Source: Myxococcales bacterium
Lineage (GTDB): Bacteria; Myxococcota; Myxococcia; Myxococcales; 40CM-4-68-19
Assembly: GCA_035261845.1 (NCBI GenBank)
Contig: DATFTN010000197.1
Span: 17,923-81,922 of the forward strand
Length of the DNA: 64,000 bases
Direction of reading: 5' to 3'
Shown: positions 1,029 through 62,021 of the stretch, piece after piece
How the letters are laid out: the number at the start of each line of letters is the position of its first letter
How positions within the stretch are numbered: the first letter of the stretch is position 1
Program-made: the position numbers and the translations under genes
The notes under the pieces: model-generated
Seen by the model: only the letters and a program-made list of their open reading frames with translations
Databases searched by the model: none
Told to the model about the DNA's origin: nothing

Positions 1029-1148
1029 CGCGGAGGGTCTAACGCCGGGAGAGATGTGTGTAAATCCCACAGCCCAAAGCCAGGACGGTTTCTGCGGGGG
1101 CCCCGGCCCTCTCTGCTATGCTCCAGTCGAGGGGAGCTGTGTACTCGC

Positions 1149-3054: not shown

Positions 3055-3258
3055 TCAGGTCCGCGGACGCTCGCGGTAGAAGAGCGTGATGGTCAGGCAG
3101 TGGAACTCCTTGTCCGAGCTCTGGGTGACGATCTTGTCCACGATCTCGAGCGCAGCGTTGTCGTTCAGCCAGCGGGTGATGGTCTCTCCCATCACCTCGC
3201 GGTCGCGGGCCAGCGTGGTGGAGAAGATCTTCATGCCGGTGAACACGGGTGGGTTCAT
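3055..3258 (-). CDS. Small conserved-looking hypothetical protein (67 aa)
   Basis: Tail of shadow ORF 3055..4098: MNPPVFTGMKIFSTTLARDREVMGETITRWLNDNAALEIVDKIVTQSSDKEFHCLTITLFYRERPRT. Its ATG (3256-3258) overlaps the TGA (3255-3257) of the upstream synthase gene as ATGA. Confidence 0.55.
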   Translation of the reverse strand: MNPPVFTGMKIFSTTLARDREVMGETITRWLNDNAALEIVDKIVTQSSDKEFHCLTITLFYRERPRT

Positions 3259-4505
3259 GACCTTGCCTCGGGCCGCAGCTCCCGCACGAGCTGCAGCAGC
3301 TCCGCCTCGGTGAGCGTGCGCGGGGAAGCTTTTGCGCGCTGGAGGATCGCCTTGGCGAGCGGCTCGTCGGCGGGGATCTCGTGGCGGGCGAGCCAGTGCT
3401 TCACGTTGGAGAGCCCGCTCAAGGGACCGATCTCGATCCGCTGCTCCTTGCCGAACTCGCCGGCCGGCACGCCCGAGTAGATGCGGTCCGCCAGCCAGCG
3501 ATCGCCCTTGCGCTGCGCCTTGACGATCGCCGCCGCGTGCACTCCGGTGGCGGTGCGGAACGCGTCCTCCCCGACCACCGGATAGTTCACCGGCAGCGAG
3601 TGCCCGGTGACCCGCGCGGCCAACTCGACGAAACGCACCAGCCTGGTCATGTCCCGCCCTCCGTAGACGGGATGGCCGAGCAACTTGAGGTTCACCAGCA
3701 GCTGGTCCACCGCCGTGTTCCCCACCCGCTCGCCGATCCCCGCGGCGCAGCCGTGCAGGCGCGTCGCCCCCGCCGCCCCCGCCGCCAGCGCGTTGGCCAG
3801 CGCCAGCCCCCGGTCGTTGTGCCCGTGCCAGTCGAGCCCCACTTCCACGCCGGACTCCCGCACCACCTCCTGGGCGAATTTCACCAGCGCGGCGGTGCCC
3901 TGGGGAGTCGCGTGGCCCACGGTGTCGCAGAGGCACAGGCGGCGCGCGCCTGCCTCGATCGCGGCGAGGAACAGCCGGCGCAGATCGTCCGGCTTGCTCC
4001 GCGTGGTGTCCTCCGTGACGTAGGTGACCGCGAGGTTCTGCCGGGCGGCGAAGCGGATGGCCTCCACCGACTGCTTCTCGATGAAGGCGAGGTCCCATTC
4101 CTCCGCGTACTGCCGGATCGGCGAGGACCCGATGAACGCGTAGACTTCCAGGGGGAAGCCCGTCTCCTGCTGGACCTCGGCCGCGGGAGCGATGTCGCCG
4201 ACCACCGTGCGGCAGGCGACGTTGGCGCGGATCTTCAACCGCGCGTCCCGGATCTCCTCCACCAGCCGCTTCACCGCCGCGCGCTGGTTCGGGCCGGCGC
4301 CGGGCAGGCCGACGTCGAGCTGAACCACTCCCAGGTCGTCGAGCAGGTGCAGGATCTCGATCTTCTCCTCGATGCGCGGATCGACCGCGCTGGGGCTCTG
4401 GATGCCGTCGCGCAGCGTCTCGTCGAGGACCAGCGCCTCTCCCAGCCGATCCGGCGCCGCTTGCGCGGAGTTCCAGTCGAAGAAGAGGTCCTGCTCCGCG
4501 GCCAT
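3255..4505 (-). CDS. DRE-TIM metallolyase of the 2-isopropylmalate/citramalate/homocitrate synthase family (short LeuA3-like form, no C-terminal regulatory domain)
   Basis: Track ORF 3255..4556 trimmed to MAAEQDLFFDW. Motifs seen: LDETLRDGIQSP, HGHNDRGLALANALAA, TGVHAAAIVKA. Length is 416 aa, too short for a LeuA_dimer domain. Confidence 0.8.
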   Translation of the reverse strand: MAAEQDLFFDWNSAQAAPDRLGEALVLDETLRDGIQSPSAVDPRIEEKIEILHLLDDLGVVQLDVGLPGAGPNQRAAVKRLVEEIRDARLKIRANVACRTVVGDIAPAAEVQQETGFPLEVYAFIGSSPIRQYAEEWDLAFIEKQSVEAIRFAARQNLAVTYVTEDTTRSKPDDLRRLFLAAIEAGARRLCLCDTVGHATPQGTAALVKFAQEVVRESGVEVGLDWHGHNDRGLALANALAAGAAGATRLHGCAAGIGERVGNTAVDQLLVNLKLLGHPVYGGRDMTRLVRFVELAARVTGHSLPVNYPVVGEDAFRTATGVHAAAIVKAQRKGDRWLADRIYSGVPAGEFGKEQRIEIGPLSGLSNVKHWLARHEIPADEPLAKAILQRAKASPRTLTEAELLQLVRELRPEARS

Positions 4506-4518
4506 GGTTCCCCGGATC

Positions 4519-5715
4519 CTACGCCGACTCCAGGAGCAGCGCGATGCCTTGGCCACCGCCGATGCAGGCCGAGCCCACCCCGCGCTTCTTGCCCCGCCGT
4601 TTCAGCTCGTACAAGAGGTGCGCGGTGATGCGCGCACCGGAGGCGGCCAGCGGGTGCCCCACCGCGATGGCGCCGCCGTCGACGTTGGTGCGCTCGCGCG
4701 GCAGGCCCAGCTCCTTCTCCACGGCGAGGTACTGCGGGGCGAAGGCCTCGTTCACCTCGAACAGGTCGAAGTCGGAGAGCCTGGCCTCGTGCCGCTCGAA
4801 CGCGCGGCGGACGGCGGGCGCCGGGCCGATCCCCATGATCGATGGATCGCATCCGCTGATGCCCCAGCCGAGGAGCCGGCCGATCGGAGTCAGGCCCCGC
4901 TCTTGCGCGAACTGCCGGGTGGCGAGCACCAGCGCGCCGGCGCCGTCGCAGATGCCGCTCGCCGCGCCGGCGTGGATCACTCCGTCCTTCTTGAACACCT
5001 TGGGCAGCTTCGCCAGCCCTTCCACGGTGGTCTCCGGCCGGTTGTGCTCGTCCCGGGCGAACTGGACCACCGCTCCCTTCTTGCCCGGCAGGTCCATCGG
5101 AGCGATCTCCTCCGAAAGGCGTCCTGCCTCCTGCGCCGCGGCGAACCGCTTCTGGGAGAGCACGCTGTACTCGTCCACCTCGCGCTGGGAGATGCCGTAC
5201 TTCACCGCCAGGTTCTCCGCGGTCATCGCCATGGGGAGGCCGTTGTAGCTGTCGGTCAGCGCCTCCCAGAGAGCGTCCTCGAGCTTGGGAGACTTGCCCA
5301 GCCCGACTCCGAAGCGGAGCCCGCGGGCGACGTGCGGCGCCTGCGACATCGACTCGGTGCCGCCGACCAGCGCGCACTGGGAGTGGCCGGCGAGCATCTC
5401 GAGCGCGGCGTCCACCACCGCCTGGAACCCCGACCCGCACAGGCGGTTCACCGTCAACGCCGGGACCTGCTGCAGCAGGCCTGCCTTCAGTCCCACGTGG
5501 CGCGCCAGGTAGATCGCGTCCGGGCTGGTCTGCATCACGTTCCCGAACACCACGTTGTCGATTTGCTCGGGCTTCACCCGGCTCTGCGCGATCGCCGCCT
5601 TGGCCGCGTGCACGGCCAGATCGGTGGCGGAAACGTCCTTCAGAGCGCCGCCATAGGTGCCGAACGGAGTGCGCTTGGCGGAGAGGAACACCAGGTCGGT
5701 CGGGATCGGCTTCAT
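4519..5715 (-). CDS. Acetyl-CoA C-acetyltransferase (thiolase II)
   Basis: Track ORF 4519..5766 trimmed to MKPIPTDLVFLSAKRTPFG. Active-site contexts seen: VNRLCGSG, NEAFA, GGAIAVGHPLGASG-like and CIGGGQG. Confidence 0.9.
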   Translation of the reverse strand: MKPIPTDLVFLSAKRTPFGTYGGALKDVSATDLAVHAAKAAIAQSRVKPEQIDNVVFGNVMQTSPDAIYLARHVGLKAGLLQQVPALTVNRLCGSGFQAVVDAALEMLAGHSQCALVGGTESMSQAPHVARGLRFGVGLGKSPKLEDALWEALTDSYNGLPMAMTAENLAVKYGISQREVDEYSVLSQKRFAAAQEAGRLSEEIAPMDLPGKKGAVVQFARDEHNRPETTVEGLAKLPKVFKKDGVIHAGAASGICDGAGALVLATRQFAQERGLTPIGRLLGWGISGCDPSIMGIGPAPAVRRAFERHEARLSDFDLFEVNEAFAPQYLAVEKELGLPRERTNVDGGAIAVGHPLAASGARITAHLLYELKRRGKKRGVGSACIGGGQGIALLLESA

Positions 5716-7531: not shown

Positions 7532-7624
7532 GGCCGGACGATGCTCTCCGATCCGGCGCGCCGCCGCCAGATGCTAGAGTGCCGCTGCCGTCCGGGCCCC
7601 GCATCCCGCGACGTCCGCGCTGTG

Positions 7625-7654
7625 AAAAAGCGTAGCGCCGCCCTATCGGCGGCG
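7625..7654 (-). terminator. Hairpin just after the dehydratase stop, with a displaced U-run
   Basis: On the minus-strand RNA: CGCCGCC-GAUAG-GGCGGCG (7-bp GC stem, 5-nt loop), starting 2 nt after the stop at 7656-7658. UUUUU follows 6 nt later rather than being adjacent. Confidence 0.3.
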
Positions 7655-7655
7655 G

Positions 7656-9680
7656 CTAACCGGTCAGCTTCTCGAATACGGTGGTGCCGTGGTGCTGGAT
7701 GGCCGGGACGATGCCGCCCTCGCCGGCCAGGGCCTGGATGATCCGCGAGGGCTCTTCGGCCTGGAACTCCCGGCCCGCGACGCGCACGCGGCCGCGGGCG
7801 AGGTCCACCTCGATCCCGGCCCCTTCTCTGGCCGCCTGGTAGAAGGCGTCGTCGTGCACGACCAGGAAGGGGAGCGCTTCGTTCACCAGGTTGCGCTTGT
7901 GGATGAAGGCGTAGCTCTCGGCCACGATGGCCTCGATGCCGGCGCCCTTGAGCGCCAGCACCGCCTGCTCCCGCGAGCTGCCCGAGCCCCATCCCTCGCC
8001 GGCGACGATCACCGTGGCGCCTTCCTTCGCGCGCTGGACGAACTCCGGCCGGACGTAGTGGAACGCCTTCGCCCCCAGGTCGGCCAGCGAAGTGAGGTGG
8101 CAGAATTCGCCGGGGATGATGGCGTCGGTATCCACGTTGTCGTCGAAGCGCTGGATGCGCGACTTCACCGTCCGGCCCGGCGCAGCCGCGCGATCCGCGG
8201 CTCGCGCCGCCTTCGCAGAACGGGCCGGCCGCGCGGCCGCTCCCGCGGGCGCAAGGTGGGGCTGCGGCTCGACCACCTGCACCTCGGGAGCGCGCCTCGG
8301 CTTCCGCTCCCCGAGGATGCGCCGGTACCGGTCCTGGTCGACGAGCGCGAGCAACGGCCGCGGATCGGTCACCTTCATCTCCGCGGCGCTCGCCGCGACC
8401 GTGGCCGCGGAGGCGAGATGGGCCAGCGAGCCCTCCCCCATCCGGTTCTCGTAGTTGCGGTTCTGCGAGCTGAGCCACCTCTCGCCCCGCCCCGCCTTCT
8501 CGGAGGCGACGCCCAGGCACATCGAGCAGCCGGGCGGCCCGACGCGGAAGCCGCTGCGCTCGTAGACCTCCCACAGCCCGGCGCGGCGCAGATCTTCCTG
8601 GATGGACAGGTCCCCGGGCACCACCAGCTGTTTCGGCTGGGGCGGCCGCCGCGACTTTCCGGAGGTCTTCTTCTCCGCCGCCTCGAGCACCAGCGCGCCC
8701 AGGACCAGCTCCTCCTCCGTCGTGGTGCAGGCGCCGATGAACAGCCCCTCGAGCGGCATGCCGGCGACTTCGCTGACGCCCACCACGTTGTCGGGCGAGA
8801 ACGGCTTCGCCACCTGCGGCTCGAGCTCGTCCAGCGCGATCGGATGGCGCGCCACGTACGGCGCCTCCGGATCGGCGCGAAACGCGCGCATCGGCTGGAG
8901 CGCGGACGGATCGTCCTGGTCGGCCCGCCCAGCGAGCCACGCCGCGGTCACCTCGTCCGCCTCGAAGATGCCGTTCAACCCGCCGAACTCCGCGGTCATG
9001 TTGGCGATGGCGAAGCGGGAGTCGGTGGAGAGCTGCCGGACGCCCTCGCCCCGGTACTCGACGGACCGCTCCATGGCGACCGTGTTGCGGCCCAGGAGCG
9101 CCAGCGTGCGCAGGATGACCTCCTTGCCGCCGAACCCGAACGGGAGCTTCCCGCTGTACTCGACGCTGATCGCCTCCGGCACCTGGATCCAGGAGGTGCC
9201 GAGCACCATCGCCACCACGATGTCCGCGCCGCCCAGGCCGATGGACACCGCCCCCAGGCCGCCGTGCGACGAGGTGTGCGAATCGGCGCCCAGCACCAGG
9301 TCGTTGGGCCGCACCAGGTCCCGGTAGAACTTGGTGTGCAGGATGGTCTGGTTCGCGTCGTAGAAGTGACGGATGCCGCTCTCGCGGGCGAAGTTGCGCG
9401 AGAGCTGGACCAGCTTCTGCGCCCGCTTGTCGTTGGCCAGGGTGACGGGATCGACGGTGTGGTCCACGGCGAGGAAGAAGCGGTCCTTGTCGTGCAGCCG
9501 AGGCCGGCCCAGGAGGCCGTAAGTCCGCTCCATGCCGTTCCAGGCCAGCTCGCTGGCGATGGTCCAGTCGACCGAGACCTGCAAGACGTCGCCCGCCTGC
9601 ACCCACGGCCGCGGCAGGTTGCGCGCGTGCGCGGCCAGGATCTTCTGGGTGAGTGTCATGGGGCGGGGGGTCTGGGCCAT
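7656..9680 (-). CDS. Aconitase-family dehydratase, single-chain fusion of LeuC-like large and LeuD-like small subunits
   Basis: Track ORF of 674 aa. N-terminus is MTLTQKILAAHA. Large-subunit motifs: GADSHT and CSMCLG. An Ala/Arg/Pro-rich linker of about 60 aa follows. The small-subunit part carries NVDTDAIIP and GWGSGSSREQA. Confidence 0.85.
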   Translation of the reverse strand: MAQTPRPMTLTQKILAAHARNLPRPWVQAGDVLQVSVDWTIASELAWNGMERTYGLLGRPRLHDKDRFFLAVDHTVDPVTLANDKRAQKLVQLSRNFARESGIRHFYDANQTILHTKFYRDLVRPNDLVLGADSHTSSHGGLGAVSIGLGGADIVVAMVLGTSWIQVPEAISVEYSGKLPFGFGGKEVILRTLALLGRNTVAMERSVEYRGEGVRQLSTDSRFAIANMTAEFGGLNGIFEADEVTAAWLAGRADQDDPSALQPMRAFRADPEAPYVARHPIALDELEPQVAKPFSPDNVVGVSEVAGMPLEGLFIGACTTTEEELVLGALVLEAAEKKTSGKSRRPPQPKQLVVPGDLSIQEDLRRAGLWEVYERSGFRVGPPGCSMCLGVASEKAGRGERWLSSQNRNYENRMGEGSLAHLASAATVAASAAEMKVTDPRPLLALVDQDRYRRILGERKPRRAPEVQVVEPQPHLAPAGAAARPARSAKAARAADRAAAPGRTVKSRIQRFDDNVDTDAIIPGEFCHLTSLADLGAKAFHYVRPEFVQRAKEGATVIVAGEGWGSGSSREQAVLALKGAGIEAIVAESYAFIHKRNLVNEALPFLVVHDDAFYQAAREGAGIEVDLARGRVRVAGREFQAEEPSRIIQALAGEGGIVPAIQHHGTTVFEKLTG

Positions 9681-36028: not shown

Positions 36029-38536
36029 TCAGCTCTGCGCGGCCGACTGTGGAGTGGCCTGCTCGCCGCCCGGCTCCGGAGCCTCGCGCCGGTAGCCGCA
36101 CTGTTTGTCGGGGCAGGCGATGTAGGGCCCCTCGCGCTTGGAGTACTTCGAGAGGAGGTAGGGCTTGCCGCACTGCGGGCACGGTCCCGGGATGGGCCGG
36201 TCCCACGCGGCGAACTTGCAGTTCGGGTAGTTCACGCAGCCGTAGAACGACTTGCCGAACCGGGTCCGCCGTTCGGCCAGGCCGCCGCCGTCGTCCGGGC
36301 AGACGACGTCCTTCAGGGTGATGGGCCGGGTGGTCTTGCAGTTCGGGTAGTCGCTGCAGGCGAGGAAGCGGCCGAACCGGCCCCGCTTGTTCACCATGGG
36401 CTTGCCGCAGGTGGGGCAGGTCTCCTCCGTGGGTATGTCCTCGACCACCTCGATCTTGCCATTCTTCTCGACGAAGTCCTTGGTGTTCTTGCAGTCGGGA
36501 TACCCGGAGCACGCCAGGAAGCGCCCCATCCGTCCCCACTTGATGACCATGGGCGAGCCGCACTTCTCGCAGATCAGGTCGGTGGGCTGCTCTTCGCGCT
36601 TCACGTCGCGCATGGTCTTTTCCGCTGCGTTGAGGCTCTTCTTGAACGGCCCGTAGAACTCCTCGAGGACCTTCACCCATTGCATCTTGCCTTCCTCGAC
36701 CTCGTCGAGCTCGTCCTCCATGTGCGCGGTGAACTCGACGTCGAGGATGCGCGGAAATGCATCGACCAGGAGCTCGTTGACGATCTTGCCCAGGTCGGTG
36801 GGGAAGAAGCGGTTCTCCTTCTTCTCCACGTACTCCTTGTCTTGGATGGTGGAGAGGATGGACGCGTAGGTGGAGGGGCGCCCGATGCCCTTCTCTTCCA
36901 GCTCCTTCACCAGCGACGCTTCCGTGAAGCGGGGCGGCGGCTGGGTGAAGTGTTGCTCCGGGATGAGCTGCACCAGCTCCAGGCGCTGGCCCTCCTCGAG
37001 CGGCGGGAGCTGGCGCGCGACGTCGCCCTTCTCCTCGTCCTCCCCCTCCATCTTCTCGGCGCCCGCCTCCGGCTCCTCGGGCACCACCGCGCCGTACACC
37101 GCGAGGTAGCCGGGGAACTTCAAGGTCTGCCCCGTGGCGCGGAAGAGGAACGACCGCGGCTCCTTGCTCGCGACGCGCAGCGCCGCAGCGCGCTCGGCCG
37201 GATGCTTCGGCAAGTCGGGCGCCGGGCGCTTGGCCTCGATGTCGGCGGTGGTCTGATCGAACACGGCCGGCACCATCTGGCAGGCGATGAACCGATTCCA
37301 GATCAGCTCGTAGAGCCGGAAGATGTCCCGCTCGAGGTGCTTCTGCACCGAGCTCGGCTCGTACTCCATGCTGGTCGGCCGGATCGCCTCGTGGGCGTCC
37401 TGCGCGCTCTTCTTGGTCTTGAACTGGACGGGCTCCGGCGGCAGGTAGTCCTTGCCGAACTTGGCCGCCACGTACTCGCGCGCGGCGCCGATCGCGTCGG
37501 GTGAGAGCCGGACGGAGTCGGTGCGCATATAAGTGATGAGCGCGACCTGGCCCTCGTCGCCCAGCTCCACGCCTTCGTAGAGCCGCTGGGCGAGGGTCAT
37601 CGTCTTCTTCGCCGAGAAGCCCAGCCGGTTGGCCGCCTCCTGCTGCAGCTTGCTGGTGATGAAGGGAGCGGGCGCGTTGCGCCGGCGCTCCTTCTTCTGC
37701 ACCGACTGCACGGTGAAGGGGAGCTTCTCCAGCTCGTCGACGAGGGGTTGGGTCACCTCCCGCGAGGGGAGCTCGATCTTCTCGCCGTCCAGCTTGATCA
37801 GCTTGGCGCGGAACTGCGGAGGAAGCGCGGCCTTGAGGTCCGCCTCGATGGACCAGTACTCGACCGGGACGAAGGCCGCGATCTCGTTCTCGCGCTCGAC
37901 GATCAGGCGGACCGCCACGCTCTGCACCCGCCCGGCGGAGAGCCCGCGGCGCACCTTCTTCCAGAGGATGGGCGAGATCTTGTAGCCCACCAGCCGATCC
38001 AGCACGCGCCGCGCCTGCTGCGCGTCGTACATGTCCCGGTTCAGCTCCAGCGGGTTCTTGATCGCCTCCTGGATGGCCTTCTTGGTGATCTCGTTGAAGA
38101 GCACCCGCTGGGCGGGCAGCCGGCGGGCGACCTGCTGCTTCACGTGCCAGGCGATGGCCTCGCCTTCGCGGTCCGGGTCGGTGGCGAGCAGCACGCGGTC
38201 GGCGTTCTTGGCGGCGGCCCGCAGCTCGGTGACCACCTTCTGCTTGCCCTTGATCACCTCGTAGACCGGCTCGAATCCGTTCTCGACGTCCACCCCGATC
38301 TTCGACTTCGGCAGATCCAGGATGTGGCCCACCGAGGCCTTCACCGTGTATCCGGAGCCCAGGTACTTCTTGATGGTCTTCGCCTTGGCCGGCGACTCCA
38401 CGACCACCAGCGTGTTGCGGAAGACCTTCGGCGCGCCGGACGAGGGGCCCTTCCCCTTGCGTCCGTCGGCCTTGAGGGTGGCCTTCTTGGGTGCTGTCTT
38501 GGGTGCTGTCTTGGGTGCTGTCTTGGCGCTTGCCAT
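36029..38536 (-). CDS. topA: DNA topoisomerase I
   Basis: Track ORF of 835 aa. The Toprim start is [18 protein letters not shown]. Four C-terminal zinc-ribbon motifs are present. A Lys/Ala/Pro N-terminal extension is also present. Confidence 0.95.
38489..38524 (-). repeat. 12-bp tandem repeat x3 encoding (KTAP)3 in the topA N-terminal extension
   Basis: The plus strand reads gggtgctgtctt three times in a row (38489-38500, 38501-38512, 38513-38524). Confidence 0.9.
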
Positions 38537-52072: not shown

Positions 52073-52525
52073 GTGGAAGGCCTGCCGCAAGTCCGCTTCT
52101 TCTCTCTGCGCGAGGCGAACGCGCTGGTCGCCACTTTGCAAGACCAGTTCGAGCAGGCACGCGAGCTGCGCGACGAGCTCTCGGCGGTCCAGTCCCAGCT
52201 GGCCGACGCGGGGCACCCGCTCACCGAGCCCGACGTGGAGGTGGACAAGACCGCGCCGCCCCCGGTGCAGCGGCTCCAGCGCGCCGCCTCCCGCATCCTG
52301 GACGAGCTGCGCGGCGTCCTCCGCGGCGTCGCCGAGCTGGGCGTCGAAGTGAAGGCCGCCGACGGCCTGGTCGACTTCCGCACCCGCCTCCACGGCCGCA
52401 CCGTCTTGCTCTGCTGGCGCTACGGCGAGGAGCGCATCACCCACTACCACGAACTCGAGACCGGCTTCGCCAGCCGGCGGCCCCTACCGGACGACGGCGA
52501 CTTCATCGGCGACCTGCTGCACTAG
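52073..52525 (+). CDS. DUF2203-family protein
   Basis: Track ORF 51950..52525 trimmed to the GTG at 52073. Sequence: ...RFFSLREANALVATLQDQFEQ...GVEVKAADGLVDFRTRLHGRTVLLCWRYGEERITHYHE. Confidence 0.6.
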   Translation: MEGLPQVRFFSLREANALVATLQDQFEQARELRDELSAVQSQLADAGHPLTEPDVEVDKTAPPPVQRLQRAASRILDELRGVLRGVAELGVEVKAADGLVDFRTRLHGRTVLLCWRYGEERITHYHELETGFASRRPLPDDGDFIGDLLH

Positions 52526-55095
52526 CGACAATTCGTATACGAGTTGTTGCCGGAGTTGCAGTTGTCGAACCCAACCCGCGGCCAGTTCGTACTGACGGTC
52601 GGCACAGCGGCGCCACCAGAGTCGGTTATCAAGGCATACACGTTCCCGTTGTCTGCGCCGAAATAGAGAACACCGTTGGTGTCAATCGTGGGTTCGGACC
52701 CCGGGCCCGCAAACGTCAGATTCGACGCACCAGCTCCTACGCTTGTTCCAATGAATCGCCAAACCAAGGTCGTCGAAGGGGACGGCGGCTTGGTGTACCG
52801 AACCGCAGCCAGTTCATTCAGTCCGCTGTCCGAAAAATAGATGACCTTGTCGAGTCCCATTGCAACTGGTGATGGCGCTCCGATGCTGCTCGTTCCCGCA
52901 TAGTCCACCGCCAGCGCACCGGTTCCGAGATCAAAACCCCGAAGGTGCCCGTCGCTCAAGGTGGCAGCCCCGAATACCAATGCATCTGCTACAACTGGCG
53001 GCGCCGTAACGGCGGTCGCCATAGCGCCAGCTCCCGCCCCTGTCCAAGACTGGGAAGCGAGATCGACGGGGCTAATGGAGTGGTAGGTCTTGTTCTCGCC
53101 GTAAAACACGTTACCTACGAGGGCCACTGAACCAAAGACGACTTGAGTTAAGTCGTGCTTCGTCGGCATACCGAATCCAGCATTCGAATCGAACGAAACC
53201 TTTGCGAGTCCGGTATCGCCGTATGCAAAGTATACCGTACCACCGTCACTCACTGGCGGTCCGACGGTTGCTGGGCCGGCGGCGCCGACAAGCAAGGACG
53301 TGACTTGGTTTAGATCGCACGCCCCGCCACTGCCACCAACAGCCCACATTTTGTCGTTTCCGGAGTTCGCGACCAGCATTCGCTCGCTCGCAGCGGCTGT
53401 TCCAATGACTGCCGGCGCCCCATTTGTTTGGCCGCCGACCGCACAAACGAACTCGGAAGCGAACCCGGTGAGCGAAATTGAGAACCCATAAGCATTTCCG
53501 GCGCTCTGCTGGACAACAAATAAACGGTTTGTCAGAGCGCTGTAAGCCATATTTGCAGTTACGCTCGTGATGGCGGGCGAAACGGAGTGTCCCGTGGACC
53601 CGATAATGGTGCCGAGTCCGTCAAGAGCAACAATTGGATCGCTTGCACCGTTCGTGCCGGCGATCAAGATGAGTCTCTTTCCGCCTACCGGAGGGGTAAG
53701 GATAGGGCTACCCCGAATGTTTGTTATGGCGGAGAATTGCCGGACCCATTTTACTCGCGTGATCTTTATTGGAACAGCGGCAGAAGTCGCTTGATTGCCA
53801 ACATTATCTCTAGCCGAAACAGTCACCGATACGACCCCTTCGCCGTTGTCGTCAGTGTTATTAGGAGTGATCGAAGAGCCGCTAGTCAGGGTGGCGGTTG
53901 AGGGCATGATGTTGAATGCGTAGCTGAGGGCTGTTCCGCTCACGAGAACTCCAGCGGCTGGCGTGCAAGTGTTCCCGGGAATGTTGCACGACATGCCGTT
54001 CAGCGCGTTCGCGCCGCTACCGCCGGCCCCGTCGTCTGCGGTGAACGCGAGTGCGGCCCCGTCGTCGCCCGCGCGCCAGAAGTGACCGCCATCGTGTCCA
54101 CACACGATGCCTGGGCCTGCTGCACAGCCAGCGCCGGCCGTAGGATACGTCGGGGTGAACGAGACAGTCGGCGCCTGTCCGTCGATCCCAACCGAGCCGG
54201 AGCCGCTGTTCGAGCCGGAATCTGCCTGGCGTGGGTGGCCCAGCACGTCTGAGGCCGATACGGAGAATGCGATTAGCGCTTGCGCGCCGCCAAGGACAGG
54301 CACGCCGATGCGCGCGACCTTGAAGTGGTAATTGTCCGTCCCCGCATCGCGCGTGACGGTCCCCTTATCGATCCGGGTAGCGCCCTGCATGAGCATGACC
54401 GTCGTGATGTTCACTCCGGTCCCGGGGTCCACGATGGTGGCCTTCACGTCGATGTCCCCAGCCGCCGTCTGGTTGAACCAGGGGACGGTCGAGACCGTCG
54501 CCTGCGGCGCCGATATGGTGGCGTCCACGGCGACGCTGCGGACCACCGGCCCCGCGTCGTCGACCTTCAAGCCGGCGGTGGGCGTGATCTGGGTCTGGTT
54601 GCTGGACGCGTCGGTAGCGGTGACCTGGAAGAGATAGGGGCCGTCCGTCCCCGCGGGCGTATCGAGCGTCGGCACGGAGAAGTTGTACGTGGTGATGGCC
54701 CCGGCGGTGCTGGTGGTGGTGGCGTCGATCCGGGTGCCGTTGACCGTCAGGAAGACCGACGCGATCTGACCGCCGAAGCCGGCGCCGACGTCCACGCTGA
54801 CAGGGATCAAGTTGCCCCCCGTGCGCGCGTAGAAGCCGTTGAGCCCGGGCGCCGGGTTGTCGGTGACCCGCACCGCCTGGATCACCGGCCCGGTCGAGAC
54901 GCACTGCGAGTTCGCGCACGTCTGGTTCGCCCCGCAGACCGGGTCGCACGCCGAGAGGCAGACGTGCGGATCCACCGTCTGGTCGCAGGTGAGGCCCGTC
55001 TTGCAGTCCGAATTCTGCGAGCAGGTCCCGTTCAGGTCGACCTTGCAGGCCGACGTGCCACACACGACGAGCAACGCAGCGAACAGGCGCTTCAT
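52522..55095 (-). CDS. Large lipoprotein: Cys-rich N-terminus, Ig-like region, PQQ/BamB-like beta-propeller C-terminal part
   Basis: Track ORF 52522..55152 trimmed to MKRLFAALLVVCGTSAC. The Cys-rich segment reads CSQNSDCKTGLTCD...CLSACDPVCGANQTCANSQC. Propeller repeats are present (GTVYFAYGD, KVIYFSDSG, GVLYFGADNGNVYAL). Confidence 0.7.
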   Translation of the reverse strand: MKRLFAALLVVCGTSACKVDLNGTCSQNSDCKTGLTCDQTVDPHVCLSACDPVCGANQTCANSQCVSTGPVIQAVRVTDNPAPGLNGFYARTGGNLIPVSVDVGAGFGGQIASVFLTVNGTRIDATTTSTAGAITTYNFSVPTLDTPAGTDGPYLFQVTATDASSNQTQITPTAGLKVDDAGPVVRSVAVDATISAPQATVSTVPWFNQTAAGDIDVKATIVDPGTGVNITTVMLMQGATRIDKGTVTRDAGTDNYHFKVARIGVPVLGGAQALIAFSVSASDVLGHPRQADSGSNSGSGSVGIDGQAPTVSFTPTYPTAGAGCAAGPGIVCGHDGGHFWRAGDDGAALAFTADDGAGGSGANALNGMSCNIPGNTCTPAAGVLVSGTALSYAFNIMPSTATLTSGSSITPNNTDDNGEGVVSVTVSARDNVGNQATSAAVPIKITRVKWVRQFSAITNIRGSPILTPPVGGKRLILIAGTNGASDPIVALDGLGTIIGSTGHSVSPAITSVTANMAYSALTNRLFVVQQSAGNAYGFSISLTGFASEFVCAVGGQTNGAPAVIGTAAASERMLVANSGNDKMWAVGGSGGACDLNQVTSLLVGAAGPATVGPPVSDGGTVYFAYGDTGLAKVSFDSNAGFGMPTKHDLTQVVFGSVALVGNVFYGENKTYHSISPVDLASQSWTGAGAGAMATAVTAPPVVADALVFGAATLSDGHLRGFDLGTGALAVDYAGTSSIGAPSPVAMGLDKVIYFSDSGLNELAAVRYTKPPSPSTTLVWRFIGTSVGAGASNLTFAGPGSEPTIDTNGVLYFGADNGNVYALITDSGGAAVPTVSTNWPRVGFDNCNSGNNSYTNCR

Positions 55096-55108
55096 CGATT
55101 CTCCGGGA

Positions 55109-56281
55109 TCAGAACGCGAACGTGAGGACAAGGCCCGAGGCCGCCAGGGCACCGCCGACGATGAACAGTATGTTCGCCGCGTTCGCGGCGCTGTGCGCGG
55201 ACGAAATCGTCGCCAGGTCCTGCTGGGTGTAAGCGCCGTTGGCGGCGTAACGGCTGTTGGCGTCGTTGGCGAGGCTCTTGCTGTGCAGCCCCTCGTAGGT
55301 GGCGATGCCGGCCGCGACGACCCCGACGGCGGCCATGGTCATGCCGACGTTCCTGGTCCACTTGGTCGGGGTGGGCCGCACGCTGGGCGCGACGCTGGGT
55401 TTCCCGTCGATGCCGCGCGGCGCCTCCGCGGGAGACATGAGAGCCAGCGCCTCTTCGTGCTCGCGCGCATACAGCGTCACGCCCGGCGAGGGCTGCCGCG
55501 AGACCAGCAGCGGCCGCTCCAGCGAGGTGCGCTTGTCCACCGCGATCCGCACCCGGTGCACCCCGACCGGAAGCCGCAGGCGCTCCGGCCGGCTGGAAGT
55601 GCGCGAGATCGGCTCGCCGTCGACCAGGATCTTGATCTCCGGCAGGTCGGCGTCGACCAGCACTTCGCCGATGCACTCCTGACCCATCAGCAGCTTGCAG
55701 CCCAGCGACTCGGCCCAGACCTGCACTTCGGACGCGGTCTGCGAGGCGATCACCTGGTCCTTGTCGCCCAGCACCCTCTCGCCGCGCGTGTCGACCAGCT
55801 TCACGCGCAGGATGAGGCCGTTCTCCGTCTTGGTCAGATCGCCTGCGAAGACCTCGTCCACTCCCTGCAGGCCGCCCAGGCTGGCCAGGCAGGGCACGTT
55901 GAGGCCGCAGCCCTGCTTCTCGGCCGGCTCGGGCAGCGGGACGACCGACTGGTAACGCCTCGAGGCGTCCGCGACCAGGCGGAACGCATCGTCGACCGCC
56001 TTCAGCAGCGGGTCGGTCTCGCCCTTGCGAACCAGCCGGTACAACCCGAGCGTCGTTCCCGCACCCTTCGGCTTCGACGCCGGCAGCGCGGGCTGCGTGC
56101 TGGGCAGCGGCGGCGCCGGCTGCGCGGTCGGCGCGGCGGGAGTCGCCGGCACCGGCGCCGGGGGCGGAGGCGGCTCGAGCTGCTGTTGCTGCTTGGGCTT
56201 CGACTTCTTGCGCGACGACTGGGCGACGGCCGGCATCGAGGCCATCGAGAACACGACGAGCGCGGCCAGGAGCCGGTGCAT
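55109..56281 (-). CDS. Secreted PEGA-like domain protein with a C-terminal membrane anchor
   Basis: C-terminal part of shadow ORF 55109..56989. The ATG at 56281 follows GGAGG and gives MHRLLAALVVFSMASMPAVAQ. A PEGA-like stretch is present (EIKILVDGEPISRT...LPVGVHRVRIAV). The C-terminal TM is ILFIVGGALAASGLVLTFAF. Confidence 0.6.
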   Translation of the reverse strand: MHRLLAALVVFSMASMPAVAQSSRKKSKPKQQQQLEPPPPPAPVPATPAAPTAQPAPPLPSTQPALPASKPKGAGTTLGLYRLVRKGETDPLLKAVDDAFRLVADASRRYQSVVPLPEPAEKQGCGLNVPCLASLGGLQGVDEVFAGDLTKTENGLILRVKLVDTRGERVLGDKDQVIASQTASEVQVWAESLGCKLLMGQECIGEVLVDADLPEIKILVDGEPISRTSSRPERLRLPVGVHRVRIAVDKRTSLERPLLVSRQPSPGVTLYAREHEEALALMSPAEAPRGIDGKPSVAPSVRPTPTKWTRNVGMTMAAVGVVAAGIATYEGLHSKSLANDANSRYAANGAYTQQDLATISSAHSAANAANILFIVGGALAASGLVLTFAF

Positions 56282-56367
56282 GAAGACCTCCCCCGCCCGC
56301 CAATAACACCGGCGCTGCTGAACGAGCAAGCTACCGCTCGTAGCCGATCGGCGGCCCGACCGCGGCG

Positions 56368-58050: not shown

Positions 58051-60231
58051 CTAGACCCGCTCGACCGAGTGCACGCCCGGGATCCGGCCGATGGCGCGCA
58101 CCACGTCGTTGAGCTGCTTCACGTCGACGATCTCGATCTCGAACGTGGAGACCGCTCCCTGCTCGCCGTTGGAGCGCGCGTTGGCCTGCAAGATGTTCAC
58201 CCCCACGTCGGCGAAGGTCTCGCTCATCTTGGCGAGCAGGCCCTTGCGGTCGTCGGACCGGACTCTGAGATTTACGGCCCGCTTGAACTCGCCGTGGACG
58301 TCCCAGGTCACCTCGACGCGGCGCTCCGGGTCCGTCTCCAGGGCCTTGGTGCACGCGCGGGTGTGCACGGTGACACCACGCCCGCGGGTGATGAACCCGA
58401 CGATCTGGTCGCCCGGCACCGGGCTGCAACAGCGGGCGTAGCGGACCAGCACGTCGTCAATTCCACCGATGCGCACGCCGCCTGCAGTGCGCGATCGCTG
58501 CGCGACCTTGCGGAAGAGCTGCGTCAGCCGGCTCTGGTGCTCGACGCTGTCGCCGTCCGCTCCGTCCCCCTTCTTCTGCGCCAGCCGCTCGGGCGGCAGG
58601 AGCCGCTGCAGGACGTTGGCCGGCGAGAGCTTCCCGTACCCCACCGCGCTGACCAGGTCGTCGGCGCGCGAGTGCCCGTAGTCGTTGGCGAGCTTCACGA
58701 ACTCGGGCGTCTTGACCATCTTGGTGAAGGCCAGGTCGAAGCGGCGGAACTCGCGCTCGAGCAGATCGCGGCCGATCTCCAGCGACCTGTCCCGCTGCTG
58801 CTGCTTGATGAACTGCCGGATCTTCGCCTGCGCGCGGGAGGTCTTCACGAACCCCAGCCAGTCCTTGTTGGGCCGGACGTTCGCGTTGGTCAGGATCTCC
58901 ACCGAGTCGCCGTTCTTCAGCTTGGACCGCAGCGGCACCATCTTCCCGTTCACCTTGGCGCCGGCGCAGTGCGCGCCCACCTCGGAGTGGATGGCGTAGG
59001 CGAAGTCGATCGGGCAGCTCCCCTGGGGCAGGCTGCGCACGTCGCCCTTCGGGGTGAAGACGAACACCTCGTCGGTGAAGAGGTCGACCTTCACCGTCTC
59101 CAGGAACTCGCGCGGGTCCTTGAGGTCCTGCTGCCACTCCATCAGCTGGCGCAGCCAGGCGAACTTCTGCTCGTCGCGCCCGCCCGACTTGCCCTCCTTG
59201 TAGACCCAGTGGGCCGCGATGCCTTCCTCGGCGATGCGGTGCATCTCCTCCGTGCGCATCTGGATTTCGATGCGCTCCCCGGTGGGCCCGATCACCGTGG
59301 TGTGCAGCGACTGGTACATGTTGGGCTTGGGGATCGCGATGTAGTCCTTGAAGCGCCCCGGCACCGGTTTCCACAGCGAGTGGATGAGGCCCAGCGCCTC
59401 GTAGCAGGCGGGCACCGACTTCAAGAGCAAGCGGAAGGCGACGATGTCGTGCAGCTGCGACACCGAATTGAGCCCGTTCTTCCGCATCTTCTTCCAGATC
59501 GAATAGAGGTGCTTGGGGCGGCCCTGCACTTCCGCGTCGAGCCCCGCCTCCTTCAGCTTGCTCTGGAGGAGCTGCACGACGTCGGCGATGAACTTCGCCC
59601 GGTCCTTCTGCGTCTGCGCGACCTGCTGCTCGACGTCGGCGTACTCGGCCGCCTTGAGGTAGCGGAAGGCGAGGTCTTCCAGCTCGATCTTGATCCACTG
59701 GATCCCGAGCCGATGCGCCAGGGGCGCGTAGATGTCGAGCGTCTCCTGCGCGATGCGCTGCTGCGCCTCCGGCTTCATGTATGCCAGGGTGCGCATGTTG
59801 TGGGTGCGGTCGGCGAGCTTGACCAGGATGACCCGGATGTCCTTGGCCATCGCCACCAGCATCTTGCGGAAATTCTCCGCCTGCTTCTCTTCCTGGGTGG
59901 TGGGGCCGTGGGAGAAGGTGCCCAGCTTGGTCACCCCTTCGACCAGCGCCAGCACCTCGGGCCCGAACAAGTCGTGGATCTCCTCGGGCTTGGCGAGGGT
60001 GTCCTCGATCGTGTCGTGGAGCAGGCCGGCGATGATGCTGGCCTCGTCCAGCTTCAGCTCCGCGAGCAGGCCGGCGACCTCCAGGGGGTGGACGAGGTAG
60101 GGCTCCCCCGACTTCCGGATCTGCCCCTGGTGGACCTTGGCGCTGTAGACGTAGGCCTTCTTGATCAGGTCCAGATCCGCTTCCGGCCTGTAGGTATTGA
60201 CCCGCTCGAGGATGTCGTTGAGCCGGATCAT
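58051..60231 (-). CDS. rel: Bifunctional (p)ppGpp synthetase/hydrolase (RelA/SpoT homolog)
   Basis: Track ORF 58051..60276 trimmed to MIRLNDILERV. The HD motif is LLHDTIEDT. The synthetase region contains YQSLHTTV. TGS and ACT-like C-terminal regions are present. Confidence 0.9.
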   Translation of the reverse strand: MIRLNDILERVNTYRPEADLDLIKKAYVYSAKVHQGQIRKSGEPYLVHPLEVAGLLAELKLDEASIIAGLLHDTIEDTLAKPEEIHDLFGPEVLALVEGVTKLGTFSHGPTTQEEKQAENFRKMLVAMAKDIRVILVKLADRTHNMRTLAYMKPEAQQRIAQETLDIYAPLAHRLGIQWIKIELEDLAFRYLKAAEYADVEQQVAQTQKDRAKFIADVVQLLQSKLKEAGLDAEVQGRPKHLYSIWKKMRKNGLNSVSQLHDIVAFRLLLKSVPACYEALGLIHSLWKPVPGRFKDYIAIPKPNMYQSLHTTVIGPTGERIEIQMRTEEMHRIAEEGIAAHWVYKEGKSGGRDEQKFAWLRQLMEWQQDLKDPREFLETVKVDLFTDEVFVFTPKGDVRSLPQGSCPIDFAYAIHSEVGAHCAGAKVNGKMVPLRSKLKNGDSVEILTNANVRPNKDWLGFVKTSRAQAKIRQFIKQQQRDRSLEIGRDLLEREFRRFDLAFTKMVKTPEFVKLANDYGHSRADDLVSAVGYGKLSPANVLQRLLPPERLAQKKGDGADGDSVEHQSRLTQLFRKVAQRSRTAGGVRIGGIDDVLVRYARCCSPVPGDQIVGFITRGRGVTVHTRACTKALETDPERRVEVTWDVHGEFKRAVNLRVRSDDRKGLLAKMSETFADVGVNILQANARSNGEQGAVSTFEIEIVDVKQLNDVVRAIGRIPGVHSVERV

Positions 60232-60341
60232 TCTCTTCAAAAAATCAAGCCTAGCCCACGGACGGGCAGGCGGCAAACCTCCTCTGAGTGGATTTGACGC
60301 GTCGTGGCGACAAATGATTCAACCCCTTGACAAGCCTGCGA

Positions 60342-60371
60342 TTGACCCCTCGCCGGGCTGCCCTTTAGACT
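60342..60371 (+). promoter_or_regulatory. Possible sigma-70-type promoter for the FHA gene
   Basis: TTGACC (60342-60347), N18, TAGACT (60366-60371), about 35 nt upstream of the ATG at 60408. A second TTGACA lies 15 nt upstream (60327-60332). Confidence 0.2.
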
Positions 60372-60407
60372 CGATCGACGCTGGTTTTGCCCCGGGGATT
60401 CCTCATC

Positions 60408-62021
60408 ATGGCGATCACGTGCCCCAGCTGCGGCATGGACAACTCGGACGCGGCCACCGAGTGCCGTCGCTGCAGGGCGCCGTTCGCGGAGGCCCCGGCG
60501 GAGGACCTCTCCGCCTCGCTCGGGGTGATCTGTCAGAGGTGCGAGGCCTACAACGCGCCGGGCGTCGCCCGCTGCACCACCTGCGGCTACAAACTGGATG
60601 AGGCGCCGCAGCCGGCCGCGGCGCACGCGCCGGCGCCATCCCTCACACCGGTCGCGACCTCCGAGACGACCCTCTCGGAGGAATTGAGCGCGCTGGCGAT
60701 CAGCGCGGAAGAAGCGGCTGATGCCGGGCTGGAGGTGACGAACGGCGCAGGCGCGGCACCTCCGTCTTCTGAAGCCACTCCCGCCGCACCTGGTCCGGCG
60801 GGCGTTCGCCGCGGCTGGGCAGCCGTCGACGCGGCATTGGGCGGCAGCGTGAGCCTGCGCGATCCCGTGGCGGACAAGGCACGCCAGATGCGCGAGGCGC
60901 TCGCGGCCCTCAAGACCTGCCAGAGCTGTGCGGCGGAAAACCCGCCGGCCGCGAAATTCTGCTACGAGTGCGGCACTCCGTTCGCGAATGCGCCGCAGTC
61001 CTCTGCGCGGAAGGCGAAAGCGGAGCCACCTCCGACGGTCTCGGTCCAGATGGACGAGATGGGGATCGAGGAGCCTGGCCCGGAGGAGGCGCAGGCCCCG
61101 GCGGTGACCGCCGAGGAGCCGCCCGCCGACGACGCGCCCGAGGCCTGGGCGGCGAGCACCGATCCCACCGCCCGTCCCTACGGCGCCGTTCCGGAGACCT
61201 CGCCGATCAACCTTCAGGATCCCTCCCCCGAGCCGCTCGGCTGGGAGGAGCCGGGTGCGGAGAACGCGCCGGCGGCGGTTCCGGTGGACGTGGTCGCGGA
61301 GGTGGCCGACGGCGCGGCCGTCGCGATCACCGATCCCTTGGCGGAAGAGGCGCCGCCCGCCGGCGAGCCCGCGCCGCCCTACCAGGCCTCGCTGGTCGTG
61401 GAGCGGGGCAGCGCGACCGGCACCACCTACGTGCTGGGGCAGATCGAGAACGTGGTGGGCACCGACGGCGCGGCGGTCGAGCTGGCCGACCCGCACCTGG
61501 CGCCGCGCCATGCCGCCATCGTCTTCGACGAGCAACGCCTGCTGGTCCGCGACGAGGGCTCCGCCAACGGGGTCTACGTCAAGGTGCGCCAATCGGCCGC
61601 GATCGAGCCCGGCGACTACTTCCTCGCCGGCGAGCGCTTGCTGCGCTTCGACGGCCCCTGCGAGCTCCCCGTCGGCGAGCCGGGAGACACGCCCTACCTC
61701 GGCTCGCCCCGCCCGCAAGGAACGGTGGTGCAGGTGACCGAGGTCCTCCGCGGCGGGAAGACAGGGCGGACCTGCTTTCGCGCCGGACCGGCGATCGCGG
61801 TGGGACGCACGGGCTGCGACCTGAACTTCGCTTCCGACGCGCAGCTCGCCCCGCGCCACGCGGAGGTGCGGATCGCGCCCGACGGATCGGCCACCCTGGT
61901 CGACCTCGAGGCAGCGCCAGGCGGGGTCTTCCTGCGCCTGCGACCGCAGCAGTGGCTCGAGCTGCAAGCGGGCGACGTTCTCCAGGTCGGCGATCAGGTG
62001 CTGCGGCTCGACGTCGGTTGA
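60408..62021 (+). CDS. Triple zinc-ribbon, double FHA-domain protein
   Basis: Track ORF 60387..62021 trimmed to MAITCPSCG. Three CxxC...CxxC ribbons are present. The two FHA-like cores are ...PHLAPRHAAIVFDEQRLLVRDEGSANGVYV... and ...AQLAPRHAEVRIAPDGSATLVDLEAAPGGVFL... Confidence 0.8.
   Translation: MAITCPSCGMDNSDAATECRRCRAPFAEAPAEDLSASLGVICQRCEAYNAPGVARCTTCGYKLDEAPQPAAAHAPAPSLTPVATSETTLSEELSALAISAEEAADAGLEVTNGAGAAPPSSEATPAAPGPAGVRRGWAAVDAALGGSVSLRDPVADKARQMREALAALKTCQSCAAENPPAAKFCYECGTPFANAPQSSARKAKAEPPPTVSVQMDEMGIEEPGPEEAQAPAVTAEEPPADDAPEAWAASTDPTARPYGAVPETSPINLQDPSPEPLGWEEPGAENAPAAVPVDVVAEVADGAAVAITDPLAEEAPPAGEPAPPYQASLVVERGSATGTTYVLGQIENVVGTDGAAVELADPHLAPRHAAIVFDEQRLLVRDEGSANGVYVKVRQSAAIEPGDYFLAGERLLRFDGPCELPVGEPGDTPYLGSPRPQGTVVQVTEVLRGGKTGRTCFRAGPAIAVGRTGCDLNFASDAQLAPRHAEVRIAPDGSATLVDLEAAPGGVFLRLRPQQWLELQAGDVLQVGDQVLRLDVG

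Follow-up and report, generated by a model that had tools for sequence, protein, structure and literature searches.

The window analysed here, 64,000 nucleotides of DNA from an uncultured soil member of the Myxococcales, contains a gene for a predicted lipoprotein (52522..55095, minus strand) whose 3' part carries far less G+C at third codon positions (GC3) than its 5' part. Comparison with related loci shows that the 3' part behaves as an allelic cassette, evidently swapped between related genomes by homologous recombination. The low GC3 is a stable property of the pool of cassettes and not a mark of recent foreign origin. The account that fits best, and is probably correct, is a polymorphic envelope lipoprotein that undergoes cassette exchange and whose cassettes stably hold a low GC3.

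The lipoprotein has 857 aa and starts with MKRLFAALLVVCGTSAC. A longer open reading frame (ORF; 52522..55152, minus strand), on which the earlier note on this DNA relied, begins at GTG 55152. Because that start overlaps the upstream gene and five independent gene calls in related contigs (L041-L045) give an identical 857-aa product, translation most likely begins at ATG 55095. The window has a GC content of 70.0% (300-nt windows: mean 0.70, standard deviation 0.038), and its longest low-GC tract lies at 52400-53800, where 300-nt windows range from 0.53 to 0.62. Along the longer ORF, GC3 is 0.92-0.98 over codons 1-240, about 0.72-0.80 over codons 250-400, and 0.48-0.72 thereafter. The earlier note, working from hand counts, had placed the boundary of a low-GC 3' block at nt 54300 and proposed a GC and GC3 profile as a check; the computed profile bears this out with a significant step. 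The maximum-likelihood single change point falls at codon 265, counted from ATG 55095 and corresponding to nt 54300, where GC3 drops from 0.94 to 0.63 (chi-square p 9e-21; log-likelihood ratio 53, with 300 codon shuffles reaching at most 8.9). When two steps are allowed, the fit places them at nt 54384 and 53970 and separates GC3 levels of 0.95, 0.77, and 0.60. Elsewhere in the window, genes have a mean GC3 of 0.91 (standard deviation 0.069; 275 windows of 100 codons), and the lipoprotein gene holds nine consecutive 100-codon windows at 0.53-0.68. GC3 climbs partway back, to 0.70-0.76, over the last ~57 codons.

Amino acid composition is ruled out as the cause of the low GC, since GC at first and second codon positions is nearly flat across the gene and GC3 falls by 0.3. 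Fourfold-degenerate sites in the low-GC3 part are near uniform (A.23, C.28, G.28, T.21), and the block uses many codons absent from the conserved 5' part, or scaffold, including TTA, ATA, and AGA. An overlapping gene in another frame of the block was considered and set aside (no codon position is GC-high; frame open for 590 codons).

A protein search recovers 29 full-length homologues, all from Myxococcales or unnamed metagenome proteins. GC-neutral peptide pattern scans of GTDB genomes and JGI metagenomes (241 million metagenome records) add 37 loci, and context look-ups add further ones, giving about 50 related loci in all; WIN denotes the locus of the window, L-numbers the related loci, and P-numbers the homologous proteins. 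The related loci belong to uncultured Myxococcales with contig GC of 61-72%, and nearly all of them show the same GC3 drop, which is present even at 30% protein identity. In window coordinates, family mean GC3 is 0.83-0.90 over residues 1-240, 0.60-0.65 over residues 480-760, and 0.82 at the very end, and the depth of the valley in the C-terminal part varies between alleles from 0.57 to 0.79. The drop is regional rather than per site, because conserved and variable columns share their GC3 within each region (0.628 and 0.649, respectively, in the C-terminal region). The same equality rules out Akashi-type site selection for translational accuracy. When the C-terminal part alone is used to search for homologues in other taxa, it retrieves five fragments, all of the same family.

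Mosaic structure was assessed by region-wise Nei-Gojobori comparisons, BLASTN, and sliding identity. The closest relative, L046, encodes a 93% identical product of the partner gene that lies directly upstream of the lipoprotein gene. Its DNA is 92-97% identical to the window across the AlkZ-like gene, the L-PSP gene, the partner gene, and the first ~800 nt of the lipoprotein gene; from nt ~54300 to the contig end, identity is about 40%, which is to say unalignable. Protein identity is 93% over residues 20-260, 48% over residues 270-440, and about 30% beyond. A codon-by-codon comparison of the two sequences locates the crossover zone at residues 241-260 (RIDKGTVTRDAGTDNYHFKV; 54316..54375, minus strand), a stretch that is kept in all close relatives and has zero nucleotide differences from L046; identity falls away directly 3' of it.

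Several other pairs repeat this pattern, some of them with conserved DNA on both sides of the divergent segment. L029 and L032 are 92-93% identical in both flanks of an unalignable core of about 560 nt, with identity resuming about 250 nt before the stop codon. L008 and L017 are 86% identical upstream and 94.6% identical downstream of an unalignable core of about 1.3 kb, and WIN and L048 share flanks at 80-90% around a gene that is divergent throughout. Over 7 kb L007 and L018 do not differ at all, but from codon ~475, where their own GC3 step lies, DNA identity falls to 60-78%; nonsynonymous (dN) and synonymous (dS) divergence in their C-terminal part are 0.19 and 0.85, and both are zero upstream. 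L002 and L013 likewise form a mosaic pair, and L013 is reassorted: its N-terminal part is 94% identical to L002, and its middle part is 85-88% identical to WIN and L014 and only about 44-52% identical to L002. The reverse case is seen in L017 and L019, with a C-terminal part that is 90% identical and an N-terminal part that is 74% identical. These comparisons reveal orthologous loci whose flanks are conserved and in which one segment falls into deeply diverged allele classes. They lend substance to the proposal in the earlier note that a C-terminal cassette had been replaced by recombination on a resident N-terminal scaffold, through L046 and similarly through L007/L018, L008/L017, L029/L032, and L002/L013. 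A further candidate pair, L032 and L035, was dropped since the apparent divergence is a frameshift or indel in L035 (about 7540-7690, equivalent to L032:3750-3900). Outside this site the two are about 99-100% identical, and the ORF of L035 is cut to 644 aa; the lesion reflects either an error in sequencing or assembly or a naturally occurring mutation within the variable block that inactivates the gene.

The phylogeny of the variable segment is incongruent with that of the rest for L013, L017/L019, L007/L034, and WIN/L046. The earlier note had allowed that relatives might share both the low-GC 3' part and a single phylogeny; relatives do carry the low-GC part, but the phylogenies of the two parts differ. 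Over 253 pairs, identity in the N-terminal part correlates only weakly with identity in the C-terminal part (Spearman 0.35), and pairs with 80-85% identity in the former can have 27-30% in the latter. Pairwise identity changes at residue 261 (WIN/L046), 263 (L002/L013), and 268 (L001/L002), and at residues 453-477 in other clades. In these sequences GC3 itself changes at 238-291 in the clade of the window and at 455-483 in the other clades. Identity breakpoints coincide with clade-specific GC3 steps, which means that composition tracks whether a segment is exchanged. Plain evidence of this comes from residues 265-445, a module with GC3 of 0.87-0.95 where it belongs to the scaffold and 0.64-0.80 where it belongs to the cassette.

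Low GC3 persists over long divergence. WIN and L051, members of the same allele class (91% protein identity), have diverged to a dS of 0.91 with a dN of 0.044 (dN/dS 0.05), and their GC3 values are 0.62 and 0.66. In the deeper class members L001 and L014, synonymous sites are saturated and C-terminal GC3 is still near 0.6. Synonymous changes polarised with two outgroups, a small count, comprise 22 from G/C to A/T and 11 from A/T to G/C, a bias opposite to amelioration. Six independent assemblies of the strain of the window contain zero single-nucleotide polymorphisms (SNPs) in the lipoprotein gene. dN/dS ranges from 0.05 to 0.22 with high dS. Strong purifying selection on the protein within an allele class implies that the gene is neither decaying nor hypermutating. 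A recent foreign insert is ruled out by a valley that is both family-wide and stable. The suggestion of horizontal acquisition, also made in the earlier note, is not supported by these data: the valley spans the family, there is no sign of amelioration from a dS of 0.9 to saturation, and no low-GC donor is found among the about 50 loci.

The lipoprotein comprises a signal peptide with Cys, a Cys-rich module, Ig-like domains, a beta/Cys-rich module, an eight-bladed propeller, and a Cys-containing tail. The Cys of the signal peptide probably forms a lipobox. The signal peptide (window 55095-55045, residues 1-18) contains two Cys residues, C12 and C17. Pfam returns weak Ig-like matches in the N-terminal half and no match in the C-terminal half of the protein; NCBIfam, PADLOC, and PHROGs searches of the locus yield nothing useful, with zero matches from the latter two. 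An AlphaFold2 model with a mean predicted local distance difference test (pLDDT) score of 75.7 contains a signal helix, a small Cys-rich module, Ig-like sandwiches, and the beta/Cys-rich module, followed at residues ~445 to ~830 by an eight-bladed propeller whose best fold matches in the Protein Data Bank (PDB) are BamB structures (template modelling [TM] score 0.67-0.72, identity 12-15%). The model thus supports a C-terminal domain that resembles the BamB/PQQ-like propellers at the level of fold, as the earlier note had predicted, and two family members (P0008 and P0029) match the Pfam family PQQ_2 (PF13360). That note had also equated the low-GC part with the propeller. The propeller does lie inside the block; the block additionally covers residues 265-445, and thus starts about 180 codons earlier, taking in the beta/Cys-rich module.

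These parts map onto the minus strand as follows. The conserved scaffold, residues 1-265, lies at 54301..55095 (GC3 0.94; 88-97% DNA and 93% protein identity to L046). The first part of the exchanged block, residues ~266-444 at 53764..54300, encodes the beta/Cys-rich module with an invariant CGHDG..FWR motif, and its GC3 lies between those of the scaffold and the propeller, at about 0.77 as far as nt 53970 and lower beyond. The hypervariable BamB/PQQ-like eight-bladed propeller, residues ~445-830, lies at 52606..53763 with GC3 of about 0.60. The conserved C-terminal part, residues 801-857 at 52525..52695, consists of the last propeller strands and the tail WPRVGFDNCNSGNNSYTNCR (column identity 0.54-0.70; family GC3 0.73-0.82), and is a likely 3' homology arm for cassette exchange. 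The protein ends in ...NWPRVGFDNCNSGNNSYTNCR, without a hydrophobic or basic tail. Across the family the tail is near invariant (window 52525-52590, residues ~836-857) and follows the pattern W-P-[RK]-x-G-[FY]-D-N-C-N-S-x-N-x-x-[FY]-x-(x)-C-[QRH]-stop. It is modelled at pLDDT below 50 and matches none of the sorting tags tested. With its two Cys residues, the tail could act as a sorting signal, form a disulfide loop, or serve to contact the partner protein.

A second size class of about 1200 aa (L005, L009, L020, and L021; P0004-P0006 and P0014-P0017) has an extra region inserted in the scaffold. Its members show the same GC3 drop over the propeller, sometimes shallower, as in L021 (0.88 to 0.45-0.70). 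The strain of the window is found in more than 23 contigs. In many contigs of the family the sequence stops within the lipoprotein gene, and often in the variable block or at its border (L007, L013, L046, L047, L049, and L050). Coexistence of several alleles in one sample, with resulting breaks in the assembly graph, would be expected to produce such ends, which also leave full-length alleles under-sampled.

The conserved partner gene (55109..56281, minus strand; 390 aa) lies 13 nt upstream of the lipoprotein gene and has a GC3 of 0.92-0.95. An ORF at 55092..56309 on the same strand was rejected as the upstream gene because it is in the wrong frame, with an Arg/Ala/Gly-rich translation. The partner protein has a signal peptide, a Pro-rich disordered linker of 65 residues, an alpha/beta domain with a beta-sandwich, and a C-terminal hydrophobic helical hairpin; its model gives fold matches to the TolB N-domain, PelC, LpoB, and FlgT, and Pfam holds no family for it. 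It also carries four invariant Cys residues, and the long hydrophobic C-terminal helix pair ends in ...LTFAF. Its homologues form about 50 clusters at 34-93% identity, all from soil metagenomes or Myxococcales metagenome-assembled genomes (MAGs). With the exception of L009, all related loci that include upstream DNA have the partner gene immediately 5' of the lipoprotein gene, and the GC3 of the partner gene is 0.85-0.96 in every locus. The two genes make up what appears to be a new, uncharacterised envelope module specific to Myxococcales, whose members are all named 'hypothetical' in databases.

The neighbourhood consists of ordinary core genes (RelA/SpoT, AlkZ-like glycosylase, L-PSP, DUF2203, GNAT acetyltransferase, and M50 peptidase), of which the DUF2203, GNAT acetyltransferase, L-PSP, and AlkZ-like genes, together with the partner gene, are the immediate neighbours. 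Close relatives are syntenic with the window around the lipoprotein locus. At its 3' end, the stop codon of the lipoprotein gene (minus strand) overlaps that of the convergent DUF2203 gene (plus strand) in the tetranucleotide CTAG (52522..52525), as the earlier note had read it. That note had also seen no adjacent immunity-like ORF, transposase, or reverse transcriptase, and Pfam, PADLOC, and PHROGs searches around the locus agree, finding no transposase, reverse transcriptase, toxin, or immunity gene. The same searches give no indication of the toxin-like protein to which it had likened the pattern. No second copy of the block is present in the 64-kb window, nor are silent partial copies found in the flanks of related loci, and the genome scan finds one locus per MAG. 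The sole sign of multi-copy or pseudogene cassettes in the data set is L038, a 5.3-kb contig with 62% GC flanks that holds two family copies in opposite orientation (133-1361, minus strand; 3124-5245, plus strand), one of them broken by frameshifts. Two further low-GC patches of the window, at 36400-36950 and 60050-60450 (0.58-0.62), lie in an 842-aa ORF and the RelA/SpoT gene. They reflect amino acid composition (GC at second codon positions 0.32-0.39) with normal GC3 of 0.92-0.96, and are unrelated to the lipoprotein block.

Comparison of the loci thus shows a cassette that extends from codon ~265 in the clade of the window and from codon ~455 in other clades, and that exists as many deeply diverged allele classes. 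Exchange proceeds through one crossover in the short conserved intragenic stretch and another in the conserved C-terminal end or the downstream flank. In a proposed mechanism for the low GC3, allele classes would be too different to recombine inside the block, so that each class behaves as a small sub-population. A weak GC-favouring force on synonymous sites, either GC-biased gene conversion or weak codon selection, might then become ineffective within the block, while strong selection on the protein would persist. The polymorphism itself would probably be kept by frequency-dependent selection on a recognition surface, such as one involved in phage adsorption or in cell-cell or prey recognition. 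The lipoprotein, which has a signal peptide with Cys, is probably surface-exposed. The U-shaped GC3 profile of the family, with its minimum in mid-propeller, fits a gradient of recombination away from conserved arms. Recombining genes have higher GC3 in most bacteria studied (PMC4450053). The GC3 valley might thus be a population-genetic rather than a historical footprint, in which a non-recombining segment relaxes to mutational equilibrium (GC3 about 0.55-0.65, near-uniform fourfold sites) and the scaffold and partner gene stay at 0.9-0.95; this part of the account is tentative. A search of the literature for an intragenic GC3 valley in a polymorphic bacterial gene returned general background only, with no direct precedent.

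Several observations weigh against this account or parts of it. All relatives are metagenome contigs or MAGs, and an isolated mosaic case (L046 or L007/L018, for example) might have arisen when assembly joined two sequences at the conserved stretch, although the pairs with two conserved flanks argue otherwise. Alleles that are divergent over the whole gene (L047, L048, and L050) keep an N-terminal GC3 of 0.83-0.85, which implies that divergence alone does not yield the full drop. Gross dN/dS is well below 1 and lends no support to positive selection. If C17 is the lipidated residue, the protein of the window has Lys at position +2, a residue that in Myxococcus xanthus promotes retention in the inner membrane. 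That position is occupied by Asn or Ser in other family members, and because of this difference the final location of the protein may differ between alleles.

Other explanations account for parts of the same evidence. The sharpness of the GC3 steps and their location at recombination breakpoints would also suit cassettes imported repeatedly from an unsampled lower-GC lineage (about 55%) and still carrying a donor composition that has not yet ameliorated; near-uniform fourfold sites would suit a donor of about 55% GC, and divergence within classes could have accrued in such a reservoir. A reservoir of this kind is nonetheless unlikely. About 40 scanned loci all pair a native-GC3 partner gene (0.85-0.96) with an N-terminal GC3 of at least 0.75, the scans contain no uniformly low locus, and flank GC never falls below 0.61. 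Polarised changes show no excess toward G/C, the search with the C-terminal part gave only fragments of the same family, and a lower-GC donor lineage is missing among the about 50 loci. Selection might instead keep A/T-ending rare codons or AT-rich DNA in the block, whether to slow translation for propeller folding or export, to lower expression or make it conditional, or to bind a nucleoid-associated silencer. Low GC3 that is stable under strong purifying selection and kept across the family would agree with this, as would the use of TTA, ATA, AGA, and other codons never found in the scaffold. The module at residues 265-445 speaks against such a function, since the same domain is GC-rich as scaffold and GC-poorer when exchanged, and its composition thus tracks exchange rather than domain. 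The depth of the drop also varies widely between alleles (0.57-0.79), and conserved and variable sites are alike in GC3, all of which makes functional AT-richness rather unlikely.

Doubts of a more technical kind concern chimeric contigs, comparisons between paralogues, or a C-terminal domain that is merely fast-evolving and vertically inherited. Exclusively metagenomic relatives, the many contigs that end in the variable block, and the two copies in L038 give such doubts some ground. The compared loci share flanking genes on both sides, however, with one locus per MAG; two chimeric joins would be required in each of L008/L017, L029/L032, and WIN/L048; L017/L019 and L013 have C-terminal or middle parts more alike than their N-terminal parts, and low GC3 itself is present in the window and six independent assemblies. 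Artefact or paralogy is accordingly improbable. Extreme divergence restricted to one part of a gene might also result from local hypermutation, with a process akin to a diversity-generating retroelement (DGR), a deaminase, or error-prone repair diversifying the block in place and toward A/T. This is the most doubtful of the alternatives and can be considered highly improbable. Six independent assemblies lack a SNP in the gene, the combination of dN/dS of 0.05-0.22 with high dS is typical of old alleles, and alleles are common to different backgrounds. At fourfold sites A is about equal to T and C to G, with no strand- or adenine-specific signature. The immediately adjacent genes include no reverse transcriptase, and a second copy that might serve as template is missing from the 64-kb window. 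DGR variable regions are about ten times shorter than the block of 1.2-1.8 kb. Strand-biased deamination and DGR activity are ruled out specifically by the balanced fourfold sites, the missing template copy in the window, and the stability of the allele in six assemblies; the gene is likewise rejected as a DGR target on the grounds of block length, the absence of a second copy in the window and of an adjacent reverse transcriptase, and the lack of an A-specific signature.

By analogy, the gene is best read as encoding a polymorphic, probably surface-located receptor with cassette exchange comparable to that of TraA, OspC, and fHbp. The TraA/TraB system belongs to the same bacterial order and is also a two-gene module of a polymorphic envelope protein and a conserved partner. 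In TraA/TraB, the phylogeny of the polymorphic domain disagrees with the rest, a pattern attributed to allele shuffling or horizontal gene transfer (PMC6372800). Like TraA, the lipoprotein carries one highly polymorphic domain with a discordant phylogeny on a conserved Cys-containing scaffold. Unlike TraA, its variable domain is a C-terminal eight-bladed propeller rather than an N-terminal PA14-like domain, and Pfam gives no PA14 (PF07691) match in the lipoprotein even at E<=1. Its signal peptide is of the lipoprotein type, and a Cys loop stands at its end in place of MYXO-CTERM, which is absent from the C-terminus and without an NCBIfam match. TraB is an outer-membrane beta-barrel with an OmpA domain, whereas the partner protein here is TolB-N/PelC-like with a helical hairpin. 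TraA is a kin-recognition receptor for outer-membrane exchange, and no GC3 valley is known to have been reported in traA.

Borrelia OspC and Neisseria fHbp and TbpB are mosaic antigenic surface lipoproteins kept polymorphic by balancing selection. As in these proteins, allele classes are discrete and old, variable segments lie between invariant crossover blocks, alleles are swapped between otherwise similar genomes, and purifying selection operates within each class. The differences are a free-living soil host, for which adaptive immunity cannot be the selector, another fold and family, and a longer block (1.2-1.8 kb). Among BamB/PQQ-like propeller lipoproteins, the likeness lies in the fold of the C-terminal domain (TM 0.67-0.72) and the lipoprotein signal peptide; BamB itself is a conserved housekeeping protein of about 390 aa, whereas the present protein has 857 aa with about 445 extra N-terminal residues, is hypervariable, and occupies another genomic context. 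A polymorphic toxin with an immunity gene (SitA/SitI, Rhs, or contact-dependent inhibition [CDI]) was rejected, since a propeller occupies the C-terminus, the gene downstream is convergent, encodes DUF2203 and is conserved in relatives, and PADLOC and PHROGs return no match.

The pyoverdine locus, O-antigen clusters, and the variable regions of pilin and flagellin are divergent, diversity-selected loci that show unusual codon usage and lower GC in GC-rich genomes. For such atypical hyper-polymorphic loci, foreign origin and a locally maintained state are debated, and the pattern is known but unexplained. Unlike the pyoverdine and O-antigen loci, the lipoprotein gene displays the contrast inside a single ORF, beside a native half and a co-oriented partner, across the whole family, and with breakpoints at the step. 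A compositional step within a gene, as this case cautions, need not signal recent transfer from a low-GC donor. So sharp a contrast within one gene (GC3 0.94 and 0.60 in the same mRNA and context, with the step at breakpoints) bears on what keeps GC-rich genomes GC-rich. If the valley does reflect relaxation of a non-recombining segment, the extreme GC3 of Myxococcota would depend on recombination, through GC-biased gene conversion or an efficacy of weak selection that hinges on recombination, and not on expression-linked codon selection. The family would then be a natural within-gene experiment, and GC3 valleys could be used to detect long-term balanced polymorphism in GC-rich bacteria from sequence alone. 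Myxococcales are known for kin recognition and predation. Few segments seen in these genomes are as polymorphic as the propeller, which moves between backgrounds that are otherwise nearly identical and is on that account a candidate determinant of recognition, whether of phage, kin, or prey.

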